Source of the DNA: Escherichia coli phage NG_S8
Sequence record: LC788711.1
DNA: 64,000 nt
Direction: 5' to 3' (one strand)
The stretch's first letter is position 1, and each line of letters begins with the position of its first letter. Positions 1,394 to 64,000 of this stretch are shown here, one piece after another. The translations under genes were made by a program, and so were the position numbers. The notes under the pieces were generated by a model. The model was not told the DNA's origin. It did no database searches and was given only the letters and a program-made list of their open reading frames with translations.

Positions 1394-1402
1394 GGAATAA
1401 GA

Positions 1403-2620: not shown

Positions 2621-2780
2621 TCTTTTAGTATGGCCAGACGGTAGTTGGTGCTACCGTTTCGAATTTGCTACTGATGACTTCTCATGGAAGAGTGATGATT
2701 TCTGCGTTATCTATGAGGATACAGCAGAATGGAAAGAGTTCCTTATTAAGGAGGGAGAATATGGTGAAGAAGATTTTTAA
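2598..2780 (+). CDS. hypothetical small acidic protein (60 aa)
   Basis: ATG 2598 after GGAGGG; in-frame part of ORF 2457-2780. Confidence 0.45.
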   Translation: MSQKSMCDLLVWPDGSWCYRFEFATDDFSWKSDDFCVIYEDTAEWKEFLIKEGEYGEEDF

Positions 2781-2946
2781 GGGTATCTGGAAAGGTCTAG
2801 TATGGTTTGTCAACCTAATCGGTATGATTACCATTTATTCTCTGTTCCTATCTGTTATGTGGGGTAAAGGTGAATTGAAGGTTCCAGTTCCTTTTACTGA
2901 TGAAGTTAAAGTCTGGACGTGGGATGCTACTGGTGGAAATAAGTAA
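2761..2946 (+). CDS. hypothetical small membrane protein (61 aa)
   Basis: ATG 2761 after AAGGAGGGAG; hydrophobic segment GLVWFVNLIGMITIYSLFLSVMW. Confidence 0.45.
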   Translation: MVKKIFKGIWKGLVWFVNLIGMITIYSLFLSVMWGKGELKVPVPFTDEVKVWTWDATGGNK

Positions 2947-3440
2947 TACTCCTGTGATTTTCCTGGATATTGATGGGGTGCTCAATTCGAGCATCTCTCA
3001 CCATCATGCTCCAGATAGTGAGAAGCTATTCTTTGGGGGTGATTGGGTTTACAAGCCATTACTCCAGGCTTTTCAGAACTTTCTTGAGCCATCCCCAATA
3101 ATGATTGTTGGGGTATCTTCATGGTTTTCTGTACGAAATGAAATGGAGAACGTTCAGATTATGACCGGACTCGGTTTGATCGATCGTTTTCTTGGTACAA
3201 CAGATTTTACTGGAGGTGGTTTATCTCGGGGGTAATTCTGTTTTACGTTTTGTCGAAAAATATAAGCTCAAGCATTGGTGTGTCCTAGATGATGCTGGTG
3301 CTATGATGTATCAATTTCCTACTGTTATTGTAAACGGCAGGACTGGAATAAACCTTCAAGATTTAAACGCTATCAGCTATATGCTGGAGTTTAGTCCAGA
3401 TCTTGAAATGTGTAAGGCTCTTCAGAAACTTAAGGTATAA
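2924..3440 (+). pseudogene. HAD-superfamily 5'-nucleotidase-like gene (NT5C-like), apparently frameshifted at G-run 3226-3230
   Basis: N-terminal VIFLDIDGVLN (HAD motif I) in frame 2900-3235; downstream HWCVLDDAG (DD motif) continues in frame 3192-3440. Confidence 0.4.
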
Positions 3441-3442
3441 GC

Positions 3443-3871
3443 ATGTTCAATAATATTTTCATGAAAGAGGTAAATCCTATGCTTCTCAACTTCTGGCGCT
3501 CTCTCCCTAATGGTATGTATAATGAAACCATCAATCTCCTTAAGATTTGGTGTGAGAATAACGATATCTTCCTGTCTTTTAAAGGCCCGCTAGAGGAAGC
3601 TCCGTGTATTGGAGTTAGTGTGGATTTAGGCGAGGGAGTAGAAGAGATTGTAGACTGGAAAGAACTTGATGAAATGGGTCTGGTTTTTGCCTTGAACCAT
3701 AAGCTGTTTATGCCTGCAAATCACCGTCTTATTGTAAATTATCGCACTGGTGAAGCTCCTGCTTTCCAGGTAAATGAACGTGAGGGCTGGTCATACTCGC
3801 CCGGGGAAGTAAATGAGGGGATTCAGAAACTTCGTCGTTTCGGGTATATGATCCCAGGTTTAACTGCTTAA
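3443..3871 (+). CDS. hypothetical protein (142 aa), paralog of next gene
   Basis: ORF; C-terminal half alignable by eye with 3881-4276 product (DW.EL..MGL..ALN...F.P......TGE.P..QV......Y.....E......GY..PGL). Confidence 0.6.
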   Translation: MFNNIFMKEVNPMLLNFWRSLPNGMYNETINLLKIWCENNDIFLSFKGPLEEAPCIGVSVDLGEGVEEIVDWKELDEMGLVFALNHKLFMPANHRLIVNYRTGEAPAFQVNEREGWSYSPGEVNEGIQKLRRFGYMIPGLTA

Positions 3872-3880
3872 GGAGGCAGA

Positions 3881-4276
3881 ATGGAACAAGTATTTTGGCG
3901 TCAGATAGATCCTAGTTTGGTAGAGCGTGCTGAGGGGCTCCTTGCACGTTGGTTGGGGGTTGACAAGGTTAGTGTAACATTTCCGTTTACTTCTGTAACA
4001 GACCCTAGTGTAGGAGTCTTTGTGGATGAAGATGAAGATGATGGTTGGGAAGCTGACTGGAATGAATTGTCCAGCATGGGCTTGATTGTTGCCCTCAACT
4101 TCTCTATATTCCATCCACGTGGCTTAGCCATTACACGTGACCCCGAAACTGGTGAATCCCCTTATCTTTTGCAAGTAGAAGATGATATTTGGGAGTACAC
4201 CGAAGATATTCTCGAAGAAGCTAAAGGTCACTTAAATCGCATTGGGATCTATGTCCCAGGCCTAAATGATGATTGA
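3881..4276 (+). CDS. hypothetical acidic protein (131 aa), paralog of previous gene
   Basis: RBS AAGGAGG; acidic stretch DEDEDDGWEADWNE; shared C-terminal motif with upstream ORF. Confidence 0.65.
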   Translation: MEQVFWRQIDPSLVERAEGLLARWLGVDKVSVTFPFTSVTDPSVGVFVDEDEDDGWEADWNELSSMGLIVALNFSIFHPRGLAITRDPETGESPYLLQVEDDIWEYTEDILEEAKGHLNRIGIYVPGLNDD

Positions 4277-4367
4277 TTTTCATTAGCCCAATCCTGATTA
4301 CCGAGTCATTTTGGCTCGGTTTTCTCTGTGCTCAAAGACACTGATAGCACCTTCGGAAAAATTTTAC

Positions 4368-4396
4368 TTGCAGGATGCTCAAAATCTTGATATAAT
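4368..4396 (+). promoter_or_regulatory. sigma70-type early promoter (extended -10 TGATATAAT)
   Basis: -10 TATAAT 4391-4396 with upstream TG; -35-like TTGCAG. Confidence 0.5.
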
Positions 4397-4892
4397 ATTT
4401 ATATTGAATTGAGAGACATTAGTAAAAATTGATTTTGCTAATTTTTCTTGTTTACAATCCGCAATACGGAACAGTTAGGCTGCCCCATTAAGGGTTGTTT
4501 TAACTATTACTAGTGTTTATACTGCATTAGTTAATTATCAATTAAGTGATCTGCGTACCCTGAATTCGGAAAGGTAAATCCAAACCGTGCATATTTAGCT
4601 CGTTATATAGGCAGAGCTTTATATGGGGGTGCGAACGAAAAGAGCAGCGAATGGTGACACGTCCAGTAGCCACCTACCAATAGGATAGTGAGGGCAATCA
4701 GAATCGGCTTAGCGGCCAATGACCTAGGTTCTGATCTGGATAAGAGTTAAGAGAGCGCAGCACTGAGGTATGATAACTTATTCATACTGCTTGATGGTGA
4801 TTAATGTTTGTGTAAATGGTAGTAATAGTTGTTCTATTCTTTTGAATAGTCCTAAAGAAAGATATCCGAATAACCAACATAGGAGTATTGTT

Positions 4893-7682
4893 GTGTTCTC
4901 AATCCTACAAGGTCACGCAGGATTTTCCAGAGATAAAGCCACTGGCATCTGGAAAGAGATCAAAGTGGAAGATTACACCTTTGCAAAGCGATTCTCTAAA
5001 GAGCATCCAGAAGGTAAACCAGCTTCCATGCCCTTCAAATTTGATGTACTTGAAGAACTTGACCCGCAAAACCTTGCTGAAATGTTACCTATCATGCGTC
5101 GTCTTACCAAAGACCCGCATATTGTAGCTATTCGGGGTAAGTGTCTAGCTCCAAAAGATAATGTGCGTCGTACCAGAGGAAACTTTAACGTATCCAATCC
5201 TAGTCATATTATTGCTATGGACGTGGATGGTATTGTAGATACTGGTGGCTATGACAAGTTTAATCTTGTTGGCATGGCACGTCATATTATTAAGATGTTG
5301 AATAGTATTAGTGAGGATATGTTTCCTCTTGATGCAGGGTTTATTGCCCATGCATCGTCTTCGGCTGGATTAAAACCAGGTATCCGAATGCACTTAATGC
5401 TAGAATCTAATGTCAAGGTAACGCAGGGACAGTTAAAGTTCTTATTTACATCTATCAATGATAGTAGTAAGCAAAAGTACGGCTTTGATATTGCTGACTT
5501 AGCTTATTATTCTTCTGTTCAGCTTCACTATTTCGCAGATCCCTTATTTGATGATGGTATAGTCGATCCGTTTAAAGCGGAGAATAAACCACGTCTTGTG
5601 TATGTTAAGGGTTCGAAGGTGAATCTACCTAATAACCTAGTTGACTTTGAAACAACTAGAGGTGAGTTTAAAGAAGAATTCTACTCCTTACTTGACCAAA
5701 TTAAAGGCAAGAAGGCTGCATCTGATAAAGTGGAAGAAACCATCAGCGAACTAGAAGAAGCTGAGGATGGGGTGTACCTGCGTATTATTCCAAAACTTTA
5801 CCACAGAGCGTTAGAAGATGGTGTTGACTTTACATGGTTAGAACGTGAGATTAAACCAGCTTTATCTGAATATATTGCAACTAAAGATAATAGTCGTAAT
5901 ATTCAAGATTACTTTAATAACGGTCGTAAGCAGGCTCTCAAAGCCTTTGTAAATAACTCCAAACGTGAGATTCCACCAAACTTAAAAGGTGTACCATTAA
6001 AACGTCTAGACACAGATTCTCCACCAGAAGTTCCATACCTGAAAATTAACATTGTACCACCAAAAGGACATTTAACATTTGTTAAGGCAAGTCTTGGTAC
6101 GGGTAAAACTACAGCAGTAACTAAGTGGCTAGATGCAGGTGTTCTTCCAGGAAACTTTATTGCAATCACAAATACTAGGGCACTTGTATCTTCTAACGCG
6201 AAGAAATTCGGTGCTGGTCAGTATGATAAGTCAGTTGATATGCTGAACTTCAAACGTGGTGCCATTGATCGTATGTCTTCAACTATTCACTCTATCCATA
6301 AGTTCAAGAGCTTTGTGGGTCAGATTGATACGATCTTTATTGATGAATGTGACGCAGTAATGAATGATCTGTTATTCGCTCCGGTTGTTAAAAACCGTCG
6401 TGAATGTATTCAGGTTCTTCGTGATATCCTTATTACTGCTAAAACTGTTATCTTATCCGATGGTGATATCAGTGCAGAAACGATTGAAGCCTATGGTTCT
6501 TTGATTGATTTTGATAAACCAGTCGCATTTTATAATCACCACCGTAAAATGCTGGCGAAAGCTCATGCTTATGAATTCCCTGATGAATCCAGTATTTGGG
6601 TTGCACTTCAAACATCTTTAGAGATGGGGGAGAAATCAATCCTAGTATCTGACTGTGGCCCGGATGAACTGAATGAGAAGGGAATGGCATTACGTCGTAA
6701 TACTGGTGCGTTAGTTAAAGAAATTCACTCAAACTCTACGTCTGATGTAGATATCCGACGTATTCTGGATTATACAACTAATGAGCTAATTGATCAACAG
6801 ATTGATTGTTTATTATGTAGTCCATCTGTAACGAGTGGTGTTGACTTTAACTATTTTGATAACGTATTCGTAATCACTAGAACCTCAAACCAAGCGCCAA
6901 ACATGCGTTTTCAAGCAATCAGGCGCGACCGTGGTGCTCAGAACATTTATTATTTTATTGATAAATCTACGAGTGGATTTTCTGCGGGTTCCGAGCAATA
7001 TAATATTGACGAAGGTTGGATTGAGTTAGCCCAACAACTGTACGCACGTCGTCGTGAGCTGGAATCTAGAAACTATACTAGTACTTTGCGTTATTATCTG
7101 CTTGATCAGGGTGCAACTATCGATATTTTCAGCGAAAGCTGGGGAACTATCGAAGGTGCAGGCAAAGAGTATACAGAAGAGCGAATCAAAGCTATTTTGC
7201 ACTCAACTCCTGAATATTGTGCACCACGTCATGCAGATGCCTATGAAGCCAAGTTACTTCTGGTTCGCTATTATCATCTGGATTCTATTAAAGATGTAAC
7301 AGTGGAACACGTTGAACAGTATATCAAGGATAAACCAAACGATAGAGCTGCATTCTTCCATAAGATGCACGACATGTTCTGGGAAGATATTAAAAAGTGT
7401 TCAAACGTAACAATCAAACCGTTTATCGAAGCTCTTAAGAATAAGAAGAAGGATTTCTTCCTTAAGACAGGTCAGAGCGCTAACCCAAAATATGCTCGTA
7501 TGTATCTTGGCATGATGGGTATCGGTAAAGATCTGGATACGGAAAAGATTGTGGACTGGTACAGAACTTACTGTAAGATCGAATGTATGCCGATTCCAGT
7601 TAAGTTTATGACAGATGAAGAACGTCAGATGCATGAGGAAGCTCTTGCTGAATTGGGGGCTAGAAATGACAGCGAAGAATAA
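4893..7682 (+). CDS. large replication-associated P-loop NTPase / helicase-like protein (putative origin-binding helicase)
   Basis: Walker A GTGKTT, Walker B FIDECD; start taken as GTG 4893 after AGGAG (first ATG at 4770 gives implausible N-terminus). Confidence 0.6.
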   Translation: MFSILQGHAGFSRDKATGIWKEIKVEDYTFAKRFSKEHPEGKPASMPFKFDVLEELDPQNLAEMLPIMRRLTKDPHIVAIRGKCLAPKDNVRRTRGNFNVSNPSHIIAMDVDGIVDTGGYDKFNLVGMARHIIKMLNSISEDMFPLDAGFIAHASSSAGLKPGIRMHLMLESNVKVTQGQLKFLFTSINDSSKQKYGFDIADLAYYSSVQLHYFADPLFDDGIVDPFKAENKPRLVYVKGSKVNLPNNLVDFETTRGEFKEEFYSLLDQIKGKKAASDKVEETISELEEAEDGVYLRIIPKLYHRALEDGVDFTWLEREIKPALSEYIATKDNSRNIQDYFNNGRKQALKAFVNNSKREIPPNLKGVPLKRLDTDSPPEVPYLKINIVPPKGHLTFVKASLGTGKTTAVTKWLDAGVLPGNFIAITNTRALVSSNAKKFGAGQYDKSVDMLNFKRGAIDRMSSTIHSIHKFKSFVGQIDTIFIDECDAVMNDLLFAPVVKNRRECIQVLRDILITAKTVILSDGDISAETIEAYGSLIDFDKPVAFYNHHRKMLAKAHAYEFPDESSIWVALQTSLEMGEKSILVSDCGPDELNEKGMALRRNTGALVKEIHSNSTSDVDIRRILDYTTNELIDQQIDCLLCSPSVTSGVDFNYFDNVFVITRTSNQAPNMRFQAIRRDRGAQNIYYFIDKSTSGFSAGSEQYNIDEGWIELAQQLYARRRELESRNYTSTLRYYLLDQGATIDIFSESWGTIEGAGKEYTEERIKAILHSTPEYCAPRHADAYEAKLLLVRYYHLDSIKDVTVEHVEQYIKDKPNDRAAFFHKMHDMFWEDIKKCSNVTIKPFIEALKNKKKDFFLKTGQSANPKYARMYLGMMGIGKDLDTEKIVDWYRTYCKIECMPIPVKFMTDEERQMHEEALAELGARNDSEE

Positions 7683-7899
7683 AAAGTGGGAAACAAGGAA
7701 GTTTTCCGTAAAAGAACGGAAAACTTCTGTTTACGATACTGCGGAGAAACTATGTAGGGTTGTACCACCTCGTCTCGCTGGCATCCCTAACGTCTCCATA
7801 TGGTTACTTAAACAACGGAAGACTCGTGTGTCTCTTCGCATTGGCTTTGAGTTAGATAAAGTCTATGCTGAACTTGCTTCTTTGCTCAAAGAATCGTAA
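7666..7899 (+). CDS. hypothetical basic protein (77 aa)
   Basis: In-frame ATG within ORF 7615-7899, overlapping stop of upstream gene; weak RBS. Confidence 0.35.
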   Translation: MTAKNKKWETRKFSVKERKTSVYDTAEKLCRVVPPRLAGIPNVSIWLLKQRKTRVSLRIGFELDKVYAELASLLKES

Positions 7900-7907
7900 A
7901 AATTTAT

Positions 7908-7943
7908 TTGCTTTTAGGAAAATTTTTCTGTATAATAGATTCA
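7908..7943 (+). promoter_or_regulatory. P_N25-like strong early promoter
   Basis: -35 TTGCTT 7908-7913, 17-bp spacer, -10 TATAAT 7931-7936, downstream ATAAATTTGAGAGAGGAG; matches remembered T5 P_N25 except two or three positions. Confidence 0.85.
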
Positions 7944-7967
7944 TAAATTTGAGAGAGGAGTTTAAAT

Positions 7968-8672
7968 ATGGCTGGTTCTCGTAGAAAGAAACTTATCCAT
8001 GAAATCCCTGATGAAACCTTTAAAAAGGTTATTGAACATCTGGAGAATGGTGGTACTAAGAAAGCAGCATGTGAAATGCTCGGTGTTTCTTCTAACCCAA
8101 CTATGGAACGAATGATCGAAGAATGGAGAGATCGTCAGGTTCAAGTTGCGGAAATGAAAAAGAAGAAGCGTGGAACACTGATTGAGGGTGTTGAGCTTGC
8201 AAACGTAATTGAACAGTATCTTTCTGGTGATTCTTTTGAAGAAATTGCTGATCGTAACTATCGTTCTGTAGCGATGATTAAATCTGTTCTGGAACGTTAT
8301 GGTGCTCTGCTTCGTTTAAACGATATTGTTGATCCATTGAATCCTCCGTTGATTCCTGATGATGCAATGGCAGAAGAATTTGAAGTTGGTGAACTTGTTT
8401 GGGTTCCTGGCTATCAGTGTATTGGTGAAATCAAGAAAGCAATGACTAACCCAGTTGGCTGCTACCGTGTTTGGTTGTTATCAGAAGGTAAACAACAGAA
8501 CGTTCACTATATGCACTACGAATTAGCTTCTGTTAAACATCTGGAAAAGCTGGGTGTTGATGTTAAGGCTCTGGGCTTTAAGTGGAGTCGTGAAGAAGTT
8601 ATCACGTTGGTTAATGAAGCTGTTAAAGCTGCCCTGAAACTAGATAAAGAGAAAGGAAAACGTCGTGAGTAA
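7968..8672 (+). CDS. hypothetical protein with N-terminal HTH-like region (234 aa), first gene after P_N25-like promoter
   Basis: RBS GAGAGAGGAG; ACEMLGVS helix-turn-helix-like segment. Confidence 0.7.
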   Translation: MAGSRRKKLIHEIPDETFKKVIEHLENGGTKKAACEMLGVSSNPTMERMIEEWRDRQVQVAEMKKKKRGTLIEGVELANVIEQYLSGDSFEEIADRNYRSVAMIKSVLERYGALLRLNDIVDPLNPPLIPDDAMAEEFEVGELVWVPGYQCIGEIKKAMTNPVGCYRVWLLSEGKQQNVHYMHYELASVKHLEKLGVDVKALGFKWSREEVITLVNEAVKAALKLDKEKGKRRE

Positions 8673-8901
8673 ACTAACTGATCTGTTAAAAGCTGGAGAC
8701 GTAAAATATCTCCAGCGAACTAGTTGGGAAAATAATAAAGATTACACAGTAATCCTGAAATTCTTTGTAGATAGCAATACCGTACGCCAGTACGTGTGGA
8801 TGCCTTTTGATACATCATTATTCCCAAGTGATGAAGTGTGTGAACTAACCCTAGAAGAAGCCCTGGCCGACGATTGGGAGATCGTTGAACTAGATGTGTA
8901 G
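8665..8901 (+). CDS. hypothetical protein (78 aa)
   Basis: GTG start overlapping upstream stop; RBS AAAGGAAAA. Confidence 0.45.
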   Translation: MSKLTDLLKAGDVKYLQRTSWENNKDYTVILKFFVDSNTVRQYVWMPFDTSLFPSDEVCELTLEEALADDWEIVELDV

Positions 8902-8921
8902 CAGTTACTGAAAAATTTCAG

Positions 8922-8950
8922 TTGCTTAATCCTGTAATTCTTGATATAAT
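8922..8950 (+). promoter_or_regulatory. sigma70-type early promoter
   Basis: -35 TTGCTT 8922-8927, 17-bp spacer, TGATATAAT. Confidence 0.6.
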
Positions 8951-9008
8951 ATTCTCATAGTTTGAAAGAACTATTCTGTTTAATTCTTAATTAAGGAAAT
9001 CGAAAAAT

Positions 9009-9419
9009 ATGACTACTCCAACTCAGTGGACTGATGAACTGTTCGAAAAAATGTCTTCCGACTACGTTGCTCGTATGGAGCAATTCCCAGAAGATGAGCG
9101 TCCGGGCGTTAGCATGGAAATTGTTAGCGAAATTGCTCAGGAAAATGGTGTAACTCCGAACGGTTTCCGTATGAAGCTGACCAAAGCAGGTCTGTATATC
9201 AAGAAAGCTGCTGGCTCTACTTCTAAATCAAGCGCATCTACTGGAGAAAAAGCTTCTGGTGGTTCTCGTACTTCCAAAGCTCAGGCTCACTCCGATCTTC
9301 GCTCCGCATTCTCTGATGCTGGCTTAGCCCCGGACTTCCTGGACGACGCAATCATCGACAAGCTGACCGGTAAAGCAGCTGCTCATCTGGCAGAAGCTAT
9401 CCGAGCTATCACTAAGTAA
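9009..9419 (+). CDS. hypothetical protein (136 aa), codon usage suggests high expression
   Basis: RBS AAGGAAAT; biased codons (CTG, GCT, CGT). Confidence 0.65.
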   Translation: MTTPTQWTDELFEKMSSDYVARMEQFPEDERPGVSMEIVSEIAQENGVTPNGFRMKLTKAGLYIKKAAGSTSKSSASTGEKASGGSRTSKAQAHSDLRSAFSDAGLAPDFLDDAIIDKLTGKAAAHLAEAIRAITK

Positions 9420-9455
9420 TTCTTAGATAAATCCACCAACACAAGGAATACAGTT

Positions 9456-9752
9456 ATGAATAAAGCTGAAATTATTGCTCAATGCGAAAAATTTGGTGAG
9501 TTTTATCTTCATTACGAAAAACTTCGTCAGAAAGGAACCACGTACCTTCAGGGTACGATGGAATTTGATCCAGCTCAGGATAAATACCTGGCTGAGCGTA
9601 TTAAACGTGAGCGCATCCGTAAGCCGAAAGAAGATGAAATCCTCGTTTTCTCTCGTACTAACGATAGCTTCCGTTTCATTCCTGTTGCGAAAGTTCGCCG
9701 TGTGACGAGCCTCCAGTCAGAGTTAGATCGTGCTTCTCCAGTAGGCCGATAA
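9456..9752 (+). CDS. hypothetical protein (98 aa)
   Basis: RBS AAGGAATA; followed by terminator hairpin. Confidence 0.6.
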   Translation: MNKAEIIAQCEKFGEFYLHYEKLRQKGTTYLQGTMEFDPAQDKYLAERIKRERIRKPKEDEILVFSRTNDSFRFIPVAKVRRVTSLQSELDRASPVGR

Positions 9753-9762
9753 GAAACCAATT

Positions 9763-9788
9763 AGCCCCTATATGGGGCTTTTTGTGTA
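9763..9788 (+). terminator. rho-independent terminator
   Basis: Stem AGCCCC/GGGGCT then TTTTTG. Confidence 0.6.
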
Positions 9789-9802
9789 TTTGGGATATGT
9801 AA

Positions 9803-10111
9803 ATGAGCGATCAGGTAAATCAAAACTATGAAGGACACGTTGACGACCAGTCCATCATGCTTTGGGAGAAGGAGGGGGAACAAGTAAGACTAACCGTATC
9901 TGAATTTCGTGGGAATCTATACATGGGAATTCGTTACTGGCTCCAAGATATTACTGGAGAGTGGTTTCCAACGAAATCCGGCTTCTCTTTTCCTTATACC
10001 CTAGAAACTACATCACAGCTATTCTACGCTTTTACGCAAATCCTCAGTGAATCCGAGGTCTTGCATGAAGTACAGAAACGAGCTGAAGAACTCAAAGCCA
10101 AGAATGCCTAG
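9803..10111 (+). CDS. PC4/p15-like ssDNA-binding fold protein (102 aa), tentative
   Basis: Size and pattern LWEKEGEQVRLTVSEFRGNLYMGIRYW resemble PC4-like domain; by eye only. Confidence 0.45.
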   Translation: MSDQVNQNYEGHVDDQSIMLWEKEGEQVRLTVSEFRGNLYMGIRYWLQDITGEWFPTKSGFSFPYTLETTSQLFYAFTQILSESEVLHEVQKRAEELKAKNA

Positions 10112-10128
10112 TTCTTGGCTTTTTCTTT
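10096..10128 (+). terminator. rho-independent terminator
   Basis: Stem AGCCAAGAA/TTCTTGGCT then TTTTTCTTT. Confidence 0.7.
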
Positions 10129-10138
10129 ATAAATGTAC

Positions 10139-10167
10139 TTGCTTTCGACTCAGTTTTCATATATAAT
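10139..10167 (+). promoter_or_regulatory. sigma70-type early promoter
   Basis: -35 TTGCTT 10139-10144, 17-bp spacer, -10 TATAAT 10162-10167. Confidence 0.6.
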
Positions 10168-10196
10168 ATTTATATAAATTGATGAGAGGATCAATT

Positions 10197-10397
10197 ATGG
10201 CAATGACAATAACACTTCCAAAGATTCAAGCAAAACTTAATTTGCTCTCCATAGCAAGAATCAATTACCAGGATAGTATCGGCACTCCAAACCAGAAAGC
10301 GTACAAAGATGCGTGGTTGAAAGAAGCTGCTGATTTAGCTGGTATGGCTGCTCAGTATAATAAAGAACTCAAAATGGAAATCGCAGACGATGAATAA
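10197..10397 (+). CDS. hypothetical protein (66 aa)
   Basis: ATG 10197 after GAGAGGA; downstream of promoter. Confidence 0.5.
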   Translation: MAMTITLPKIQAKLNLLSIARINYQDSIGTPNQKAYKDAWLKEAADLAGMAAQYNKELKMEIADDE

Positions 10398-11361
10398 TGT
10401 AAAAGACTTTATCAAACGTTGTCAAGAAGCGTACTACCAGGGAATGAGTCTTATTTCCGATGAAGAATATGATCGTCTGATTAAAAGATTCCCACTAGAG
10501 GAAGAAATCGGACCGAAAGGTGATATCCCTCATTTGTATCGTATGTATTCTTTACAGAAAGTCTATTACGATCGTGGTGATAAAGCTCCATTTAACCCAT
10601 TAGGTCAGGTTGAAACTGATAAGTTAGATGGTTGTGCGATTTCTCTATTATATATTAATGGTGAATTTGTTCAAGCGTTAACTCGTGGTAACGGTATTCT
10701 AGGGAATGATGTAACGCATAATGTTAAAATGCTGAACATTCCCAAAACTATTTCCCAAAAAGTACCAACTCAAATCACTGGTGAAGTTCTCATTACTAAA
10801 GAAGTAGAGAACAAACGTAACTACGCTTCGGGTGCTATTAACCTGAAAGATAGTGATGATTTCATGCAACGTATTGGTGAAGGTGGTTTAATCTTCGTTG
10901 CATATGGTATCCAGTGTTCAGCGGAAACAGTCGGTATTACAGAAGCCTATTTAAAAGATATGCTTTGGCTAGAGAATGAGAACTTCTTGACAGTTATTAA
11001 TGTTCGTTCCTTCTTTAAATGGATTCCGACAGATGGTAAAGTTGTTCGCATTAACGACAACAATAAATTCTTCCGTGAAGGTTGGACTAATAAATTTCCT
11101 CGTGGTGCATTTGCTATTAAAGAGGATGAAGAAGGCGAAATTACCACACTTGTTAAAGTTGAATGGCAAGTAGGGGCTTCTGGTAAAGTAACTCCAGTTG
11201 GTTATTTCGAACCGGTGATTATTGATGATGCCACAATCGTTAAAGCAACTCTTAATAACGTTGATTATATTAACGCTCTCGATTTAGAGATCGGTTGCCA
11301 GATTCGAGTGATTCGTGCTGGTGGTGTAATCCCTTGTATAGTAGAGCGAGTATACGACTAA
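10390..11361 (+). CDS. NAD-dependent DNA ligase, N-terminal adenylation part (323 aa)
   Basis: KxDG adenylation motif (KLDGCAISLLY) and OB-fold region; ends at stop 11359-11361. Confidence 0.8.
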   Translation: MNNVKDFIKRCQEAYYQGMSLISDEEYDRLIKRFPLEEEIGPKGDIPHLYRMYSLQKVYYDRGDKAPFNPLGQVETDKLDGCAISLLYINGEFVQALTRGNGILGNDVTHNVKMLNIPKTISQKVPTQITGEVLITKEVENKRNYASGAINLKDSDDFMQRIGEGGLIFVAYGIQCSAETVGITEAYLKDMLWLENENFLTVINVRSFFKWIPTDGKVVRINDNNKFFREGWTNKFPRGAFAIKEDEEGEITTLVKVEWQVGASGKVTPVGYFEPVIIDDATIVKATLNNVDYINALDLEIGCQIRVIRAGGVIPCIVERVYD

Positions 11362-53618: not shown

Positions 53619-54353
53619 TTATGCAACTTTTAATTTATCAATGAATTGTTGCGGGCTGCAACTATATTCCGCGCGTTCTTCCTCGGTCATACCTTCCCAA
53701 CACATTTTTAAACGTTCGGCTAGGAATTGATAATCGTTATCATCATCAAGCGATTCATCAATAAAGGTTTCACCGATCAATGTTACGCCGATTGATAGGA
53801 TATCGTTAACGGCTTGAGCGTCCAGCGTTTTAAATCCAGCACTTGCCGCCGCTGATAATACACCTTTATGATCATCAATCATCATAAAATCAGCGTTAGG
53901 ATATAGCTGTTTAAACAGTTCAAAGTAATAAGACTTATATACAGCGTCTTTGCTGTGATATATTTCGCTAACCTTATCCGCTTCAAAGTATTTGTGCAGT
54001 GTATCGCGGGAAAATACGCGGATATTACTATTTCCGCGCCCTCGCAGCCCTTGTTTGCGTAAATAAAAGTAATCGCTTTTAGACATAAGGCGAGCGGTAC
54101 AAATAATGTTTAAAGTATTTGCATCATTCATACACTGGCGCATATATTCAACCAACGGCAATAAAGAATCCTGCATAATTAAATCATGTTTACAGGCTCC
54201 GCGTGAATACTTATTTAAATTTAAATTCCCGTTATCATCAAAGCAAGGCGCTACACGGTGGAAAGAATTAATGATAGTTCCGTCTAAGTCCCAAATCATA
54301 ACGCGGGAAATATGCGGGAAAGCGCGGGCAATATTCAAGGTTACTTGATTCAT
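53619..54353 (-). CDS. HAD-superfamily phosphatase (dmp-like 5'-deoxyribonucleotidase candidate, 244 aa)
   Basis: N-terminal MIWDLDGTIINSF (HAD motif I DxDGT); size matches T5 dmp. Confidence 0.6.
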   Translation of the reverse strand: MNQVTLNIARAFPHISRVMIWDLDGTIINSFHRVAPCFDDNGNLNLNKYSRGACKHDLIMQDSLLPLVEYMRQCMNDANTLNIICTARLMSKSDYFYLRKQGLRGRGNSNIRVFSRDTLHKYFEADKVSEIYHSKDAVYKSYYFELFKQLYPNADFMMIDDHKGVLSAAASAGFKTLDAQAVNDILSIGVTLIGETFIDESLDDDNDYQFLAERLKMCWEGMTEEERAEYSCSPQQFIDKLKVA

Positions 54354-55196: not shown

Positions 55197-56864
55197 TTAT
55201 GCAAAGAATTTACCGTTTTTGAAATCAATCAAAGTACGTTGCCCGTTTGCATAGGTAATTAAATGCGTTTGCGTCCAGCTACTAGCGCCAACGTTGTAGC
55301 CCATATCAAGCGACCCCGCCACGCCAGCGGTATAAACGCCGCCGTATATGCTAGCCGTGTGAGTATGGCCAGTGTTGAGGCGTCCCAACTTTTTAAACTG
55401 CTTAGGATTGCCCCGACTGCCATTAATGCCATTGTGACCATGTACGCCGCATTCAATGCCAGCGATTTTAAACGACTGGTCAGTAGTCAGGAAAATAGCG
55501 TTAAATTCGCAACCTGCGACACTACGCAAGGCGTAATCTAGCACGTTAAAGGTATCATCCTTTTCAGCAATAGCGGCGTATATAGCAGCGTTTAGACGGT
55601 GATACAATTCCGCGTTTGCGGGATCGTCTTTAATGTTAGCGTTACGATCATCTAACCAGCGGGATAAAGCTAAATCATGGTTAGATTCAACAATGATTGT
55701 TTGAGAGAAATCACGTTCCATAGATTCTAATACGCGTCCAGTATCGATAAGATCATCAATAACTTTATCACGTCCGGCGGCGTATTGTTTCGCAAGGAAT
55801 ACACCACTAGCGCGGTTATGATGGTTACGCGATGTAAAATCATGCACGTCATGAATAAATTGATATTTCGGTTTAAGAATATCAAGCAAGCTGTTTTCAC
55901 TAGCCCATGATGCAACGGCGCATTCATCATCTAATTTTTCGGCGTGAATATCGCCATATTGCAAGCCTAGAACATGATCGGACGTTTCAAAACATCCGGT
56001 AGGCATAGCGCAAACATTCAAATCATAGAACATTCCGCTTTCATCCATTGTTTCAAGCTGGCGGCAATAAAATTCCCCGTCGTCGTCAAATTCTACCAGC
56101 AAAGCGCCGAAATTATGCAGAGCCTCAGCTTTTTGACCTGCTTTCTGCTGAATGTAGTTTTTAAGCGTAGCCGTTCCGGTTGAATACATACGGCGCACTA
56201 CTTCACCTTTTAACGCTGGTACACTTTCAGCGGTAATTTTTGCCGCACCAATTGCCAGACCTTCAATATTTAAAGCCGTGGCGGTTTCTGCGAATCCTGT
56301 AAGCGGATAATCTGCCGTTGGTAATACGTTAATTTCAGACATGAAAGCAAAGCGGCGATTATTCAGGAAAACATTTTTATCACAGATATATTTATCAAAT
56401 GCGGGATCGTATTTAATTTTTTCTTTGCTGCCGTCGCCGTTCTGGAATCCATTTTTATTGTAAATGAATTTACTAACCAGCAATTCACCGCCGATATATT
56501 CAGCGAATTTTTCCAGACTTGCTAAAAAGTTTTTATGCGGGAAAGTATTATTTTGAATCGACGTTAGAATAAAACGGCGACCGGATTTAACTTCCCATTG
56601 TTCAATGGTACTAGAAACAATTCCCGCCGCTTCTGGGCGATCATCATTTTTAATCGCCTTTTCAGCTTTTGCCGCTTTCGGTTTAGCTGGCTTATTTGCT
56701 TCCAACCAGTCGCAAATTGCGGTTGAATGTTTCGTTGTATCGTAAACAGCTTTTGATATATCGTCGCAAACTTCCAGCTTAGTAGCGCGTAAACGTTTAC
56801 CGTAGAAATTAAAATCAGCGGCAAGTTTAACGATCTGGGCTTGTTTTTCTGCGGAAATATTCAT
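55197..56864 (-). CDS. A1-like pre-early protein, calcineurin-like metallophosphoesterase/nuclease (555 aa)
   Basis: Motifs GDIHAE, GHNG, GHTHT; size about that of T5 A1 (556 aa); upstream neighbour is A2-sized ORF. Confidence 0.65.
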   Translation of the reverse strand: MNISAEKQAQIVKLAADFNFYGKRLRATKLEVCDDISKAVYDTTKHSTAICDWLEANKPAKPKAAKAEKAIKNDDRPEAAGIVSSTIEQWEVKSGRRFILTSIQNNTFPHKNFLASLEKFAEYIGGELLVSKFIYNKNGFQNGDGSKEKIKYDPAFDKYICDKNVFLNNRRFAFMSEINVLPTADYPLTGFAETATALNIEGLAIGAAKITAESVPALKGEVVRRMYSTGTATLKNYIQQKAGQKAEALHNFGALLVEFDDDGEFYCRQLETMDESGMFYDLNVCAMPTGCFETSDHVLGLQYGDIHAEKLDDECAVASWASENSLLDILKPKYQFIHDVHDFTSRNHHNRASGVFLAKQYAAGRDKVIDDLIDTGRVLESMERDFSQTIIVESNHDLALSRWLDDRNANIKDDPANAELYHRLNAAIYAAIAEKDDTFNVLDYALRSVAGCEFNAIFLTTDQSFKIAGIECGVHGHNGINGSRGNPKQFKKLGRLNTGHTHTASIYGGVYTAGVAGSLDMGYNVGASSWTQTHLITYANGQRTLIDFKNGKFFA

Positions 56865-57248: not shown

Positions 57249-57665
57249 TTATTCACCTGCGGCCTGTTTTACTTCCTCCGCTACGCCTAACAATTGCGCT
57301 ACAGCTTCCAGCGTTTCAAGTTTTGCACTTTCCAGACTTGCCAGATCGTCGGCGTCTTTAATAACGCCAGCGTCAATGGCATGTTTAGCCATAACGCGCA
57401 CATAGTGAGCTTTACGGACACTAGACCCGCCGCCAACTTTACGCGGTTTATCGCTTTTCTGGTATGCTTTTGCGCTTGTCAGTTTAGAACGTACAGAAAC
57501 AGGACTTGCAGCGCCAACGGCGGCGGCAATTTCTTTCAGGCCGTCACTGTTAGCAAATTCAATTCCGCTTTTAGCGACCATTTCAGAATACATAGAAACA
57601 GCTTTTTCGGTGTTTTCTTCGTTCCAAGAGAATTTTGCGGTTTTTTCGGTTTTAACGTTAGACAT
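57249..57665 (-). CDS. A2-like pre-early DNA-binding protein candidate (138 aa)
   Basis: Size and position upstream of A1-like gene; RBS GGAG. Confidence 0.5.
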   Translation of the reverse strand: MSNVKTEKTAKFSWNEENTEKAVSMYSEMVAKSGIEFANSDGLKEIAAAVGAASPVSVRSKLTSAKAYQKSDKPRKVGGGSSVRKAHYVRVMAKHAIDAGVIKDADDLASLESAKLETLEAVAQLLGVAEEVKQAAGE

Positions 57666-58586: not shown

Positions 58587-58619
58587 TATCGTCGATTCCT
58601 TATATTATATAAGTTTACC

Positions 58620-58646
58620 GCCGATAGGCTTTAAGATGTTCCCTAG
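58620..58646. repeat. right copy of 26-bp inverted repeat (GCCGATAGGCTTTAAGATGTTCCCTAG)
   Basis: Partner of 58335-58360; adjacent 12-bp direct repeat TTTTTAAAGAGC also at 58315-58326. Confidence 0.8.
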
Positions 58647-59318
58647 TTTTTAAAGAGCGCGGCGGTAAACTTCCCCGCCGTGTAGTTCGTCATTGCCGCC
58701 CTACGTGATAAATAATAGGAGAATACCGAGAAGGGCGCAACCTTATTTTTGTAAAGAAACGTAAAGACAAACGCCACTGCACCACGTCCAGCGGCGCACT
58801 AAATTTAATGAAACGGGCGCGCGAATAACACCAAAACAACCATTTTAGCAAGTAATTTTTTCATTTATATTTGCTTTGCCCTACTTGACAAAATCTAAAA
58901 TCCTCGTGGTGAGGTTTTCTCGGTGTACCCCTTATGATTGCCTATCTTTTCCTTTGAGGCGCTTAGAATGCGTTACAGAGCGTTTTAGACCCTGTTAATA
59001 ACTTATACAAAAAGCAAAAATGAAATTTAATGAGTTATCCACTTGATTTTTCAAAAAAGTATTTTCTGCTATTATTTTTCATTGACAAATAAGTTTAGAC
59101 GTGCATTGATTGGTTAGCAGACTAACAATCGCTAGGATGATAATCACGCTGGTGGATTGTAACAGCTGAAACAGTTAGCAGACTATTAATACTCTAAAAA
59201 CCTATTAGCCAACTAACTATTTCATATTATATAATATACTTATAAATTAAAGAGAAATAATAACTATAAGAAACTATCGGCTAAGTGAGAACCACTATCA
59301 TTTAGGTTATTCACAAAG

Positions 59319-59376
59319 TTATCCACAGCACAAAATAACTTGACGCAATAGGCGACGTTTTGGCGACTTATCCACA
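59319..59376. promoter_or_regulatory. pair of perfect DnaA boxes (TTATCCACA at 59319-59327 and 59368-59376) plus near-matches
   Basis: Exact 9-mers; near-matches TTATTCACA 59308-59316 and TTATCCACT 59033-59041. Confidence 0.6.
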
Positions 59377-59396
59377 GACTTATATACAGGTTATCC

Positions 59397-59416
59397 TACT
59401 GTATAAATATACAGGG
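59397..59416. promoter_or_regulatory. LexA (SOS) box-like palindrome TACTGTATAAATATACAGGG
   Basis: CTGT-N8-ACAG with AT-rich spacer, close to E. coli consensus TACTGTATATATATACAGTA. Confidence 0.55.
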
Positions 59417-59663
59417 TAAATAGGTAGCAGTAACAACCGCAATCAAATTTAAGCGGCCTAGAACGCATTCTAAGCGATTTTCTCACTGCTACCCTTATTA
59501 TAATAAAGCCTTGTGTACGCTTACAGAGAGCTAGAAATAGAAAACGCGCGGTTATCATAAAAACAGGCAGTAAGCAAGAAATAAAAAACCTTTTCTTTTT
59601 TCTTGCCCCTAGCGAACAATTATCTATATCATTCACTCACCGATTAACGAGGGAGACAAAGAA

Positions 59664-60683
59664 ATGTCTACTGTAAGAATTGCAGTACCAGCAAACGCCA
59701 CTATTATTAAGGGTAGTTTGCGCAACCTGCTAGATGGTAGTAGTGCGGCAAGCGTACAACATACCGCTACTATTGTAGAAAAGATTCACGATGAAATTTT
59801 AGACAATAATGATACTCATTATTCAGTTGATGATTTCACGCTATTACTAGACCAGACAAGGGCGCTAGTAATTTTCAACCGTGATTATCACATTTTCCGT
59901 AATAGTCGGGGAACTGATATTGATTTTATCATTGTTGGTTATAGTGAGTCTCATAGTGGTTACATTGCGCGATTATATAACGTGCAAGAAAAAGAGCAGG
60001 TAACAGCAACAAAAGTAAATAATATCAGACTGGATAGTGTCGGATCGTTATTAAATAGTATCTGGCGTGAATTATCATCCAGTTATAAAGGTGCTGATAG
60101 TGACGCAATCGAAACAACTGGCGTATTGTGTTTTGAACGCGGTAGCGGTAACATGTTGATTCCTAACGATTATTTAGAGTATGGGAATGAATCAAACGTT
60201 GCAAACGCTGGATTTACACTTTTCCCGCTTGACAATGTAACAAAACAGGCTGTAAACTCTCAAACTTCAAGCGCAATTGCGCAAACTACTGAAAATAAAG
60301 GAAATAACACTATGTCTAAAGTAACCGCTATCGTTGCCGCTAATAAATCCGCCGCCGCTACCGCTGCAAAACTGGAAGCGGGTAAAGTAGCACTAACTCA
60401 GCTTACAAAAGTAGCGGCTAAAGCCCTGCCTTCTGGTATGGCTGGCATGTTCGCTAAACAGTATTTAGATACTCCGGTCGGGCGCGTTGTTGTTGCCAAC
60501 TTGTTAAATCTGGCAATCGAACAATACGCACCGAATAACCAGAAAGCGCGAATTGTTGCTAAAGCCGCAATGGATGCCGCAATGCTGGAAGTGGTACAGA
60601 GTTTCAATATTTCTGAAATGATCGACAAGGCAATCGAGGGAATCAACATTGATGCTTTGACTGCTAATATTTCAGAAGAGTAA
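59664..60683 (+). CDS. hypothetical protein (339 aa) with Ala-rich helical C-terminal half
   Basis: RBS GAGGGAG; first gene of plus-strand block after 1-kb non-coding region. Confidence 0.65.
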   Translation: MSTVRIAVPANATIIKGSLRNLLDGSSAASVQHTATIVEKIHDEILDNNDTHYSVDDFTLLLDQTRALVIFNRDYHIFRNSRGTDIDFIIVGYSESHSGYIARLYNVQEKEQVTATKVNNIRLDSVGSLLNSIWRELSSSYKGADSDAIETTGVLCFERGSGNMLIPNDYLEYGNESNVANAGFTLFPLDNVTKQAVNSQTSSAIAQTTENKGNNTMSKVTAIVAANKSAAATAAKLEAGKVALTQLTKVAAKALPSGMAGMFAKQYLDTPVGRVVVANLLNLAIEQYAPNNQKARIVAKAAMDAAMLEVVQSFNISEMIDKAIEGINIDALTANISEE

Positions 60684-60741
60684 TAATAACAAGCGGGAAT
60701 TAATTTTCCCGTTTTCTTCCCTTTTAGTTAGGAGACTAATT

Positions 60742-61233
60742 ATGTTTGGTAGCAGAAATTATGGCAACCCTATTGAAGCACGATCCCTTAATCATGACGC
60801 AATTGTATTCACTCATGCGTCTACCGGTTATTGTGGATCAGATGGGAATGATTATCATTTCGTTCCCGCTGGTGACGATATTGATGATCTATGTAATGAG
60901 GCAGGTTATGAAAATGCTTGCTCTTATGGTCTAGAAGTTATTGAAGTAGACGACGGCGAATATGAGGATAATGATAATATTGAATGCTCCGCTTATCATT
61001 ATCAGTTAAGTGAATCAGGTTGTTATATTGGCGGCGGCGATCCTATTAATTCCATCACTGAAATAATTATTGAAAATGGTGGCGTTTCGCTGAATGGTAA
61101 CAAGGCGTTACTATATGCAAACCGATTAAAGCAACTTGTATATATTCCTGATGGGAAAGAATGGGAAGAATACAACGTTCTAATTGCAGAATTGAAAAGC
61201 TGTTTCGGCGTGGAAGTGGTAGAAATAGCCTAA
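60742..61233 (+). CDS. strongly acidic protein (163 aa), candidate DNA mimic
   Basis: RBS TAGGAGACT; about 32 Asp+Glu against about 7 Lys+Arg. Confidence 0.65.
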   Translation: MFGSRNYGNPIEARSLNHDAIVFTHASTGYCGSDGNDYHFVPAGDDIDDLCNEAGYENACSYGLEVIEVDDGEYEDNDNIECSAYHYQLSESGCYIGGGDPINSITEIIIENGGVSLNGNKALLYANRLKQLVYIPDGKEWEEYNVLIAELKSCFGVEVVEIA

Positions 61234-61341
61234 TGTAAAGTTTTGTAAAGGTCGCCTATTATGGCGGCCTTTTTTGTTATAATGCCTTTACACCGAAACG
61301 GTGGATTGAAAATTTTCCCTGATTTCTAGGAGGCGTTAAAA

Positions 61342-61572
61342 ATGGTTGCTTTCTCTTCTTCTGACTCTCTTTTCACTGGTAAAGGTTGGGTATCTAATCG
61401 CTGGATTATTGATCAGATGGTTTCTGAATTTGGGATTGGTAAAACTTATGTTACCATTCAGGCGCTTTATGATAATGATCAGATTGATCAGCAAACCGCC
61501 GGATTTTTGCTGGACACGTTGAAAGCAGAACATTGCACTAAAAAGCAAGCGGCAAAAATCGTTTTAATGTAA
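61342..61572 (+). CDS. hypothetical protein (76 aa)
   Basis: RBS CTAGGAGG. Confidence 0.55.
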   Translation: MVAFSSSDSLFTGKGWVSNRWIIDQMVSEFGIGKTYVTIQALYDNDQIDQQTAGFLLDTLKAEHCTKKQAAKIVLM

Positions 61573-61619
61573 TTATTAAAAGGGGGTATATTATCCCCTA
61601 AGTTCTAGGAGCTAATAAA

Positions 61620-61769
61620 ATGGTTATTTTTCGATCTATTCTGGCTAGTATCTTGGGCGCTATTTTATCGCTGTTTGTAATAGCTTTCGGCGTTCACGTG
61701 GTTATTATTGGAGCAGGTATCGCGGGGTTTTCTTACTTGTTAGGCTGTATGACTGGTAAAGGGGAATAA
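61620..61769 (+). CDS. small two-TM membrane protein (49 aa)
   Basis: RBS CTAGGAGC; hydrophobic segments ILASILGAILSLFVIAF and VVIIGAGIAGFSYLL. Confidence 0.5.
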   Translation: MVIFRSILASILGAILSLFVIAFGVHVVIIGAGIAGFSYLLGCMTGKGE

Positions 61770-61771
61770 AA

Positions 61772-61984
61772 ATGTTAAAGAATGTTTCCCTTGCCCGTTC
61801 CAAAGGTTTTAAGCTGGTGGATGTTAACACGTTCGAGCGTCCAGATTGTAAAATCGAATATGTAGCACGCAACAAAAACGCTTTCCGTGTTACAGAAAAG
61901 AAATTTGACAAGCGGGGCAATTTGGTAGCCGAAACGATTAAACACTTTGCCACCTTTTACGCTGCATTTCGTGGGGTATTATGA
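61772..61984 (+). CDS. hypothetical protein (70 aa)
   Basis: RBS AAAGGGGAA. Confidence 0.5.
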   Translation: MLKNVSLARSKGFKLVDVNTFERPDCKIEYVARNKNAFRVTEKKFDKRGNLVAETIKHFATFYAAFRGVL

Positions 61985-62082
61985 GATCCTTATATATTGC
62001 TCTAGCGTTTGCTACCGTTGGCGTTATTTGCTCATTCGCTGCATTTGTTTTAAAAATGTACCTGATATTTTCCCAGCTTTAG
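61981..62082 (+). CDS. small hydrophobic protein (33 aa)
   Basis: ATGA overlap with upstream stop; single TM-like segment. Confidence 0.3.
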   Translation: MRSLYIALAFATVGVICSFAAFVLKMYLIFSQL

Positions 62083-62093
62083 GAGCTTGACAA

Positions 62094-62438
62094 ATGGTAA
62101 TTTATGAGGGCAATCGCTTTATTACTAATTGCCGTCCGGCATTATTAGCAAACTATTTAAATCAGCTTTCACCAGTTTATAAAGGCGTAGTTAATATCTA
62201 TGAGGGCAAAGCACATTATAAAATTTCTGCCGTTGTCGCCCGTGAACTAGCGTTTCAATTTTTAACTTTTGGGTCTTGTGACGTTCAGGTTATGGGGGAA
62301 GCGTTAATAGCGGAAAATGAAAATGAATTTATTGACATTTTCCGCAAAGTATGTACGGAGCGCCTGATTATGAAAGGCGCATATATTCAATCAACCGCTG
62401 AAAGTATTGAAACAGCGTTTCGAAAGGTGGCGCAATGA
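62094..62438 (+). CDS. hypothetical protein (114 aa)
   Basis: RBS TTAGGAGC. Confidence 0.55.
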   Translation: MVIYEGNRFITNCRPALLANYLNQLSPVYKGVVNIYEGKAHYKISAVVARELAFQFLTFGSCDVQVMGEALIAENENEFIDIFRKVCTERLIMKGAYIQSTAESIETAFRKVAQ

Positions 62439-62635
62439 CTAAAGATGAAGCACTAGAAAAAATGAAACAAGGTTTCAAAGTTAGTAATCAATATTTTACT
62501 AGCGATGAATTTTTGTACATGAAAGAAAACGGCGTGATCATGTCAGAAGATGGTTACAATTTTAATGATTGGTTTTTCAATATTCGCAAGGGGGAGGAAT
62601 GGAAGCTAGACGGTTGGAGCGTTTACCGTGAATAG
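62435..62635 (+). CDS. hypothetical protein (66 aa)
   Basis: ATGA overlap with upstream gene. Confidence 0.5.
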   Translation: MTKDEALEKMKQGFKVSNQYFTSDEFLYMKENGVIMSEDGYNFNDWFFNIRKGEEWKLDGWSVYRE

Positions 62636-63211: not shown

Positions 63212-63232
63212 CTTAAATAACAGTGTTTCTCA

Positions 63233-63388
63233 CTTCGCTTTCTAAATGCGACTCATTCTCATTATGCGACTCATTCGTACTCAACTCTGTAAAGGATAAC
63301 CATTCTCATTCCGCTTTCTAAATGTGAATCATTATCATTCGCATTCAACTTCTCAAATGCGAATCAATCTCATTATCATTCGCATTTC
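63233..63388. repeat. three degenerate ~36-40-bp direct repeats with internal palindrome AAATGCGAAT...ATTCGCATTT
   Basis: Units starting near 63233, 63311 and 63349. Confidence 0.7.
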
Positions 63389-63424
63389 GGCAGGCAGGGC
63401 ATTTTCATTTTGCCCTGCGCTTTT

Positions 63425-63992
63425 GTGCAAATCCGACATTTGCCCCCACGGATTACGTGCCAGCGTGCATGTGCGAATCCGACAATTTTTGGTAGTGTGC
63501 AAATCCGATGGGAAATATTTTTTATATGTGCGAATCCGACAATGAATTTTCCTAAAAACTCCAGCAATCAGCAACTGCGATGCAATCCAGCTGGATTTAC
63601 TAGAGTATGTGCAAATCCGACATGAGTTTATTTGTGCAAAACCGACAAGATTTTTGTGACTTCGATGAGAGGGTGTGTGATTGTGTGGGTTTGGGGAGAA
63701 GTGCGAATCCGACGAGGTTTTTGGGAGGAACTATGGAGGGTGCAGCTGTAGTGGTGCTTCAGCACCGGTTTGCTGCGTTTTTGGGGATAATGTGGGATGT
63801 TTTGGCTAGAATTGAGATTAGTGGAGATAAAGCGAAATTTTATTAGCAAAATGGGGCAAAATCGCTTGACAAGTGAAAATTCCTGTGGATCTAAAAAACT
63901 CAGGCAAATATGGGCCTTCGGCCCGAAATAATGCTGCTATTTTCAGTGTTCCTAAAAACTTTGGAGACTCCTATCAATGTGCAAATCCGACC
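63425..63992. repeat. array of eight direct 14-bp repeats, consensus GTGCRAATCCGACA, irregular spacing
   Basis: Copies at 63425, 63471, 63497, 63528, 63609, 63634, 63701, 63979, all same orientation. Confidence 0.85.
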
Positions 63993-64000
63993 ATAAATTT

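Follow-up and report, generated by a model that had tools for sequence, protein, structure and literature searches.

The closest described counterparts of the protein considered here are Ocr (T7 gp0.3) and ArdA, which like it are small, have a pI of about 4 and are specified by the DNA that enters the cell first. ArdA is also of almost the same length and net charge. Precedent within the T5 group comes from Ptr1 (ORF094) and Ptr2 (ORF103) of T5, highly acidic small proteins that are sensed by PARIS, as is the DNA mimic Ocr, and they are evidence for several charged proteins of the Ocr kind in T5-like phages (PMC11464382). Ptr1 and Ptr2 resemble our protein in phage group, in small size, in pI (4.1) and in having an uncharacterised primary function. 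They differ from it in timing, being the products of early genes on the second-step DNA whereas the present gene is pre-early, and they have no homology to it (BLASTP E = 0.46 and E = 33).

A further set of comparisons is provided by the pre-early region itself, which decides host takeover and nuclease evasion and most of whose genes are functionally uncharacterised. Several T5 pre-early takeover proteins act by binding a host protein (FtsZ, Ung). The genes for A1, Hdi/T5.008, the Ung-dependent nickase T5.015 and T5.011 share operon system, timing and accessory character with the gene described here, but their products have no homology to the acidic protein. Phages of the T5 type find wide use in phage therapy and in the biocontrol of Salmonella and E. 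coli. They resist restriction unless the sites lie in the first-step-transfer DNA (PMC10644984; bioRxiv 10.1101/866236). Resistance to restriction-modification (R-M) is, more precisely, a property of Tequintavirus, the sister genus Epseptimavirus being sensitive (PMC10644984; PMC8594841).

The acidic gene and its pre-early neighbourhood

We analysed a 64,000-nucleotide stretch of DNA from Escherichia coli phage NG_S8 (LC788711.1), referred to below as the window. Salmonella phage 1-29 (Epseptimavirus, Demerecviridae) matches the window at 100% identity throughout the 2.9 kb that were compared (59600-62500), and its gp006 is 100% identical to the acidic protein. The features that frame the gene are the following.

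53619-54353, minus strand: dmp, pre-early block, from synteny
55197-56864, minus strand: A1, pre-early block, from synteny
57249-57665, minus strand: A2, pre-early block, from synteny
59664..60683, plus strand: homologue of T5.011, 339 aa, operon partner upstream of the acidic gene (PHROG 4263)
60691..60714, plus strand: weak hairpin between the 011 homologue and the acidic gene, from a terminator-like scan, within the ~540-bp segment that is absent at the T5 junction
60730..60734, plus strand: ribosome-binding site AGGAG, 7 nt 5' of the ATG, read from the sequence
60742..61233, plus strand: CDS of the 163-aa acidic protein (PHROG 6741), an intact ORF from ATG to TAA
61247..61280, plus strand: rho-independent terminator closing the transcription unit of the 011 homologue and the acidic gene, from a scan, the T5 annotation and the sequence

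The initial annotation had placed the gene in the pre-early block next to A1/A2-like genes, and this placement is upheld by synteny with dmp, A1 and A2 as well as by the left terminal repeat annotations that enclose homologues of the gene in BF23, My1, Stitch, Shivani and others. In the window the gene lies within the terminal-repeat block, between dmp/A1/A2 and the injection-stop repeats, and the rightward operon that contains it comprises homologues of T5.011, T5.012, 013, 014, 015 and 017. The 011 homologue is 47% identical to T5.011 and 72-85% identical to its counterparts in other Epseptimaviruses. At the 3' side of the acidic gene a 10-bp G+C-rich hairpin with a T run (61247-61272) forms part of a strong terminator that is homologous to the one annotated right after T5.011 in T5.

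The product was described at the outset as a small, strongly acidic pre-early protein, and its position (60742-61233), length (163 aa) and number of Lys plus Arg (7) were all exact. It contains 13 Asp and 17 Glu, or 30 acidic residues, against 4 Lys and 3 Arg, together with 6 Cys; the figure of about 32 Asp plus Glu given previously was thus slightly high, the acidity itself being essentially right. Similarly, the computed pI of 4.05 (net charge about -23) lies just above the predicted range of 3.5-4 and bears out the strong acidity. The Asp/Glu cluster that had been quoted, EVIEVDDGEYEDNDNIE, was found at residues 64-80. Per residue the protein ranks second in acidity among the window's 71 non-overlapping ORFs of 60 aa or more, with a charge of -0.141 compared to a window mean of -0.009 (sd 0.051), or roughly 2.6 sd below. 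With 163 aa, a net charge of -23 and a pI of 4.05 it has the small size and strong negative charge of the DNA-mimic class. The ORF is a genuine gene, as judged by homologues in more than 300 phage records, dN/dS values of 0.12-0.65 and a confident AlphaFold2 model.

Several observations were made on the surrounding DNA. Dense, iss-like direct repeats are found at 63227-63994, right after the last pre-early gene, where they occupy the place of the T5 injection stop signal; an 18-nt unit (ATGTGCGAATCCGACAAT-like) occurs 7 times in them and a 37-nt unit 4 times. The interval of about 1 kb between the divergent pre-early operons (58590-59660) is without a long ORF in the window, and at the matching place T5 and phage SH9 have an HNH homing endonuclease (hegG). 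Positions 62000-62099, which lie between the 014 and 015 homologues, are only 38% identical to phage TrudiRoth while both flanks are 95-100% identical, and TrudiRoth and SH9 have an extra 35-aa ORF between these two genes. The 70-aa ORF at 61772-61984 (plus strand) is labelled by RefSeq/PHROG 4227 as 'endonuclease nicking abasic sites generated by host Ung'. It is the T5.014 homologue (91% identical). The T5.015 studied by Mahata et al. (AY543070 numbering) is a 114-aa ORF, and its homologue in the window is at 62094-62438 (plus strand). The Ung-nickase label on the T5.014 homologue may therefore be an off-by-one annotation that has been propagated.

Distribution and allele classes

In T5 (AY543070) the acidic gene is absent; the stop codon of T5.011 is followed by about 30 nt, the terminator and then T5.012, and a tblastn search with the T5 left repeat (bases 1-11000) gave no trace of the gene at E <= 1e-3. 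The pre-early set of T5 itself has no orthologue of it. Relative to T5 the window has a clean extra segment of about 540 bp, made up of the weak hairpin, the ribosome-binding site and the acidic gene, between the stop side of T5.011 and the terminator. A3 is a classical T5 gene, that of ColIb abortive infection; we considered whether the acidic gene could be A3 and rejected this, as T5 has A3 but not the acidic gene.

The same alternation between an empty and a filled site is found among other phages. The empty site is a single 611-bp piece in T5, NBSal003, VSe12, HdH2 and others, and the filled site, present in chee24, EC100, GEC_vB_N3 and others, is about 550 bp longer. The flanking DNA occurs in about 427 records, the common, BF23-type allele of the acidic gene in 229 phage records and the window's own allele in only 6. 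By this rough count carriers make up somewhat more than half of Markadamsvirinae, and the gene is accessory, being present or absent among close relatives.

In every lineage that we examined the acidic gene is located just 3' of the T5.011 homologue, sometimes with one small gene between them, and the order of the two is kept in five lineages: Epseptimavirus, Tequintavirus, Myunavirus My1, Sugarlandvirus IME260 and Serratia phage Kamaji. This conserved placement suggests, as we infer the direction of change, that the acidic gene is an old pre-early component that was lost by T5.

The slot between 011 and the acidic gene has other occupants. In several Epseptimaviruses it holds an extra 102-aa protein (pI 4.4-4.6) that is missing from the window.

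2633-2941 of the SE18 locus, with the same position in two further loci: extra 102-aa gene
1182-1490 of the Bas28 locus: extra 102-aa gene

In IME260 the slot holds an extra 164-aa acidic protein with 32 Asp plus Glu and a pI of 4.3 (locus positions 2833-3327). The 011-012 interval thus behaves as a hotspot for accessory genes. The family member of Klebsiella phage vB_Kpn_IME260 (KX845404.2) is itself an unannotated 178-aa ORF (locus positions 3369-3905), the record annotating only a 49-aa CDS at the 3' end of this ORF.

Where the gene is present its sequence varies far more than its surroundings. The protein of the window is 50-53% identical to those of other Epseptimaviruses and about 25% identical to that of SH9, an Epseptimavirus with a third allele class. 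Overall the allele classes are 25-54% identical, compared with 75-100% for the flanking genes 012-016 between the same phages and 95-100% for the neighbouring genes 014 and 015. Between about 60400 and 61200 nucleotide identity to TrudiRoth is down to 53-72%, and at the terminator it is back to 94%. The 011 homologue (59664-60683, plus strand) is also mosaic, ranging from 98% to 53% identity to TrudiRoth in 100-nt windows, and its dN/dS of 0.2-0.35 is above that of its neighbours.

With regard to selection, dN/dS for the acidic gene takes values of 0.12-0.31 among members of the common allele class and of 0.33-0.65 when the window allele is set against the other classes, a comparison in which synonymous sites are saturated. 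The ratio is below 1 in the whole gene and in each half, and these pairwise comparisons detected no positive selection in either. Fast evolution under diversifying selection is accordingly not supported, dN/dS being below 1 throughout. The picture is instead one of ancient alleles held under purifying selection and swapped by recombination, and such shuffling of old alleles is typical of genes that face variable host factors. The family is among the few pre-early genes that are both widespread in Demerecviridae and variable between near-identical phages, and a role in determining host range or anti-defence is therefore a natural one to propose for it.

Family, conserved charge and predicted fold

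Residues 5-162 of the 163 match PHROG 6741 (E = 2.2e-48), a family without functional annotation to which the present analysis adds distribution, conserved charge, fold novelty and allele structure. Scans against Pfam (E <= 10), NCBIfam and PADLOC gave no match, and hence no enzyme or DNA-binding family signature in these collections. An exhaustive phmmer search of 1.84 billion representative proteins returned only 22 clusters, 2 of them spurious; the long repeat proteins P0024 and P0035 from this search were rejected as low-complexity artefacts. A profile search of 5.8 billion proteins yielded no additional match that bore a name or a domain. The phmmer and hmmsearch homologues all belong to the PHROG 6741 family, and the identifiable members are all Demerecviridae (Epseptimavirus, Tequintavirus, Myunavirus My1, Sugarlandvirus of Klebsiella, Serratia phage Kamaji and Pantoea phage AAS21). 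Vibrio phages provide weaker structural matches, and no plasmid homologues were found. Literature searches by locus tag and accession returned no paper on the protein; the literature on JSS1_004, OLD and immune-signal sponges was considered and found to be irrelevant to it.

All 33 family members of normal length are strongly acidic, with net charges of -10 to -26 and pI values of 4.05-4.8, even where identity to the window protein falls to 21-30%. That the charge is kept in every member down to this level argues that it is functional. Columns with at least 60% Asp/Glu are at positions 33, 37, 46, 48, 53, 57 and 65-78, that is, in helix 47-61 and the loop after it, and basic residues make up only 1-2% of the N-terminal domain. 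The best-conserved residues are not acidic: they are T28-G29-x-C31-G32, A55, N58, A59, Y85, Y87, S92, Y95 and G98-G99-D-P101, with G98 and G99 invariant in the family alignment and Y85, S92 and P101 nearly so.

An AlphaFold2 model built from a 16-sequence alignment was confident (pLDDT 85.9, pTM 0.79) and predicts two domains, an N-terminal beta-beta-alpha-beta-beta-beta arrangement (20-86) and a C-terminal alpha-beta-beta-alpha-alpha-beta arrangement (102-162).

60799..60999, plus strand: N-terminal alpha/beta domain, residues 20-86, from model secondary structure and acidic columns
60928..60981, plus strand: variable acidic loop, residues 63-80, from the alignment, with columns of 60-83% Asp/Glu
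61000..61044, plus strand: most conserved motif, Y-x-Q-x-S-x-S-G-x-Y-x-x-G-G-D-P, residues 87-101, in the interdomain loop, from the alignment
61045..61227, plus strand: C-terminal alpha/beta domain, residues 102-162, from the model

The N-terminal domain holds the TGxCG turn, the acidic helix 47-61 and the acidic loop, and between alleles the N-terminal part is the most variable (36-42% identity, as against 61-66% for the C-terminal half). In about half of the distant relatives the acidic loop contains a CxxC...CxxC insert, and a Pfam scan of 23 aligned relatives gave only weak zinc-ribbon matches, in the members that bear the insert. The interdomain loop is modelled less confidently (mean pLDDT 62 for residues 91-100), and the C-terminal domain is conserved among close relatives (NKALLYANRLKQLVYIP).

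Comparison with Ocr, ArdA and Ugi structures had been suggested as a check on the DNA-mimic idea, and the model matched none of them. Ocr gave no Pfam match (E <= 10) and no Ocr PDB chain was among the profile matches at E <= 10; moreover, Ocr is an elongated all-helical dimer whereas the protein is modelled as a mixed alpha/beta two-domain fold. There was no sequence, profile or structural match to ArdA (PF07275; PDB 2W82) and no sequence or structural match to the uracil-DNA-glycosylase inhibitors Ugi and p56. A neighbouring pre-early gene product exploits Ung activity (PMC8201957), and so inhibition of Ung would be expected to work against the phage. In structure comparison the protein matched neither known mimics nor any other structurally known family. 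The predicted fold is thus new, unlike any solved structure, and the proteins constitute a lineage-restricted ORFan family. DNA mimics share no common fold, so a novel fold does not exclude mimicry and is compatible with it.

Candidate functions of the acidic protein

We tentatively favor the possibility that the protein uses its charge to decoy or inhibit a host protein that binds nucleic acid, as a means of anti-defence or host takeover, and regard this reading as plausible while falling somewhat short of probable. Our reasoning for this is based on: (i) the conservation of charge; (ii) the pre-early timing; (iii) the accessory and allelic behaviour of the gene; (iv) the lack of an enzymatic signature and (v) the precedent of Ptr1 and Ptr2. 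The parts that we infer are the binding to a host protein, the identity of that protein and nucleic-acid mimicry as the mode of action. Of the original proposal of a candidate DNA mimic, the charge, size and pre-early location are retained, while the connection to T5 restriction is not supported; the protein belongs to no known mimic family. Several findings count against the decoy reading: known mimics gave no structural match, positive selection was not detected, and carrier Epseptimaviruses are still subject to restriction. In addition, the strongest conservation falls on Gly, Thr, Ser, Tyr and Asn in two loops (TGxCG and NGGDP) and not on acidic residues, an arrangement that would fit a ligand pocket too.

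The protein is made in the first minutes of infection. If it is such a decoy, it would act after the terminal repeat has entered the cell and during the first-step-transfer pause, and would bind and block a host protein that normally binds nucleic acid. Candidate targets would be a defence nuclease or sensor and a nucleoid or repair factor. The N-terminal domain, with helix 47-61 and acidic loop 63-80, might be the electrostatic decoy and contact surface, and the C-terminal domain and the interdomain GGDP loop might serve as a scaffold or second contact. An extended version of the same idea, which we think unlikely, is that these proteins form a new-fold family of nucleic-acid mimics in Demerecviridae in which the variable acidic N-terminal domain, with or without the zinc ribbon, neutralises a host defence, DNA-end-processing or nucleoid protein during the first-step-transfer pause; the allele classes (1-29, BF23, SH9 and zinc-ribbon types) would then match variants of the target, making the gene a swappable anti-defence cassette. 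Were mimicry or decoy action true, the protein would represent a new fold for its class and a new reagent with which to inhibit a host protein.

An alternative is that the protein is a partner of the adjacent T5.011-like protein, acting as a chaperone, a modulator, an antidote of its toxicity or a second subunit. The gene order kept in the five lineages named above would fit with this, as would the single transcription unit that holds both genes and the fact that 011 alone shares with the acidic gene, in this region, a mosaic structure and fast divergence. In addition, T5.011 has a toxic effect on E. coli and perturbs the nucleoid (PMC8201957; bioRxiv 10.64898/2026.04.02.716235). Nevertheless, T5 and many relatives retain 011 without the acidic gene, extra genes can intervene between the two, and their alleles do not co-vary. 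For example, SH9 and Bas28 are 93% identical in 011 but only 33-34% identical in the acidic protein, and BF23 is 60% identical to Epseptimaviruses in 011 but 82% identical in the acidic protein. The allele classes of the acidic gene do not track those of 011, and we consider a partnership distinctly unlikely.

It also seems quite improbable that the protein belongs with the classical DNA mimics of the Ocr/ArdA type, blocking type I R-M (and BREX) and accounting, as a pre-early factor, for the restriction insensitivity of T5-like phages. Such a role would be in keeping with a size and charge like those of ArdA or Ugi, with a location on the first DNA to enter the cell and with the family-wide conservation of charge, and the literature agrees with the initial annotation that the anti-restriction determinant of T5 is still unidentified (PMC10644984; bioRxiv 10.1101/866236). 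However, T5 is fully insensitive without the gene (PMC10644984). In addition, we found intact homologues in the Epseptimaviruses Bas27 (bas27_0186), Bas28 (bas28_0192) and Bas30 (bas30_0188), which belong to the R-M-sensitive genus, and Bas27 was the most BREX-sensitive phage tested and is also restricted by EcoR124I (PMC10644984). These results, together with the lack of sequence or structural similarity to Ocr, ArdA and Ugi, speak against the proposed link to T5 restriction insensitivity. With T5 insensitive in its absence and carriers in a sensitive genus, the acidic gene is neither necessary nor sufficient for insensitivity of the T5 type, and the factor responsible should be looked for among genes that are present in T5 and missing from Epseptimaviruses. 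Avoidance of host methylation was rejected as a function on similar grounds, as T5 shows this phenotype without the gene (PMC10644984).

Ocr and ArdA protect against type I systems, whereas phages with the acidic gene show no general protection from either type I R-M or BREX (PMC10644984). As carrier Epseptimaviruses are still restricted by type II systems, some type I systems and BREX (PMC10644984), any anti-defence activity of the protein would be narrow or aimed elsewhere. The protein may still have a narrow activity, directed for example at one type I family or at a different defence system.

We find it very improbable that the protein binds a small molecule or metal, as an immune-signal sponge or enzyme, through a pocket formed by TGxCG and NGGDP, its acidity being incidental. 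The top-conserved positions (T28, G29, C31, G32, N58, Y85, Y87, S92, Y95, G98, G99 and P101) are indeed glycines and polar or aromatic residues located in loops, a pocket-like character, and many relatives have a Cys4 zinc ribbon. Against this, no enzyme or sponge family or structure was matched and the strict conservation of net charge would be left unexplained. A resemblance to a ribose-5-phosphate isomerase A motif (GIYVDGADEIN, E = 0.31 with a narrow PDB profile) was lost with a broader profile and is without structural support, and we attribute it to chance. Finally, that the gene is a dispensable passenger without important function is extremely improbable, for while it is missing from T5 and roughly a third or more of relatives, and T5 can do without 13 of its 17 predicted pre-early genes under laboratory conditions (bioRxiv 10.64898/2026.04.02.716235), it is under purifying selection within and between alleles, its position is conserved across subfamilies and its fold is predicted confidently.

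Outside the pre-early block, the window contains another ORF of similar character. The 131-aa ORF at 3881-4276 (plus strand; PHROG 2502) is even more acidic, with a net charge of -20 and a pI of 4.05. It is not homologous to the T5 PARIS trigger Ptr1 and could be another Ocr-like charged protein.
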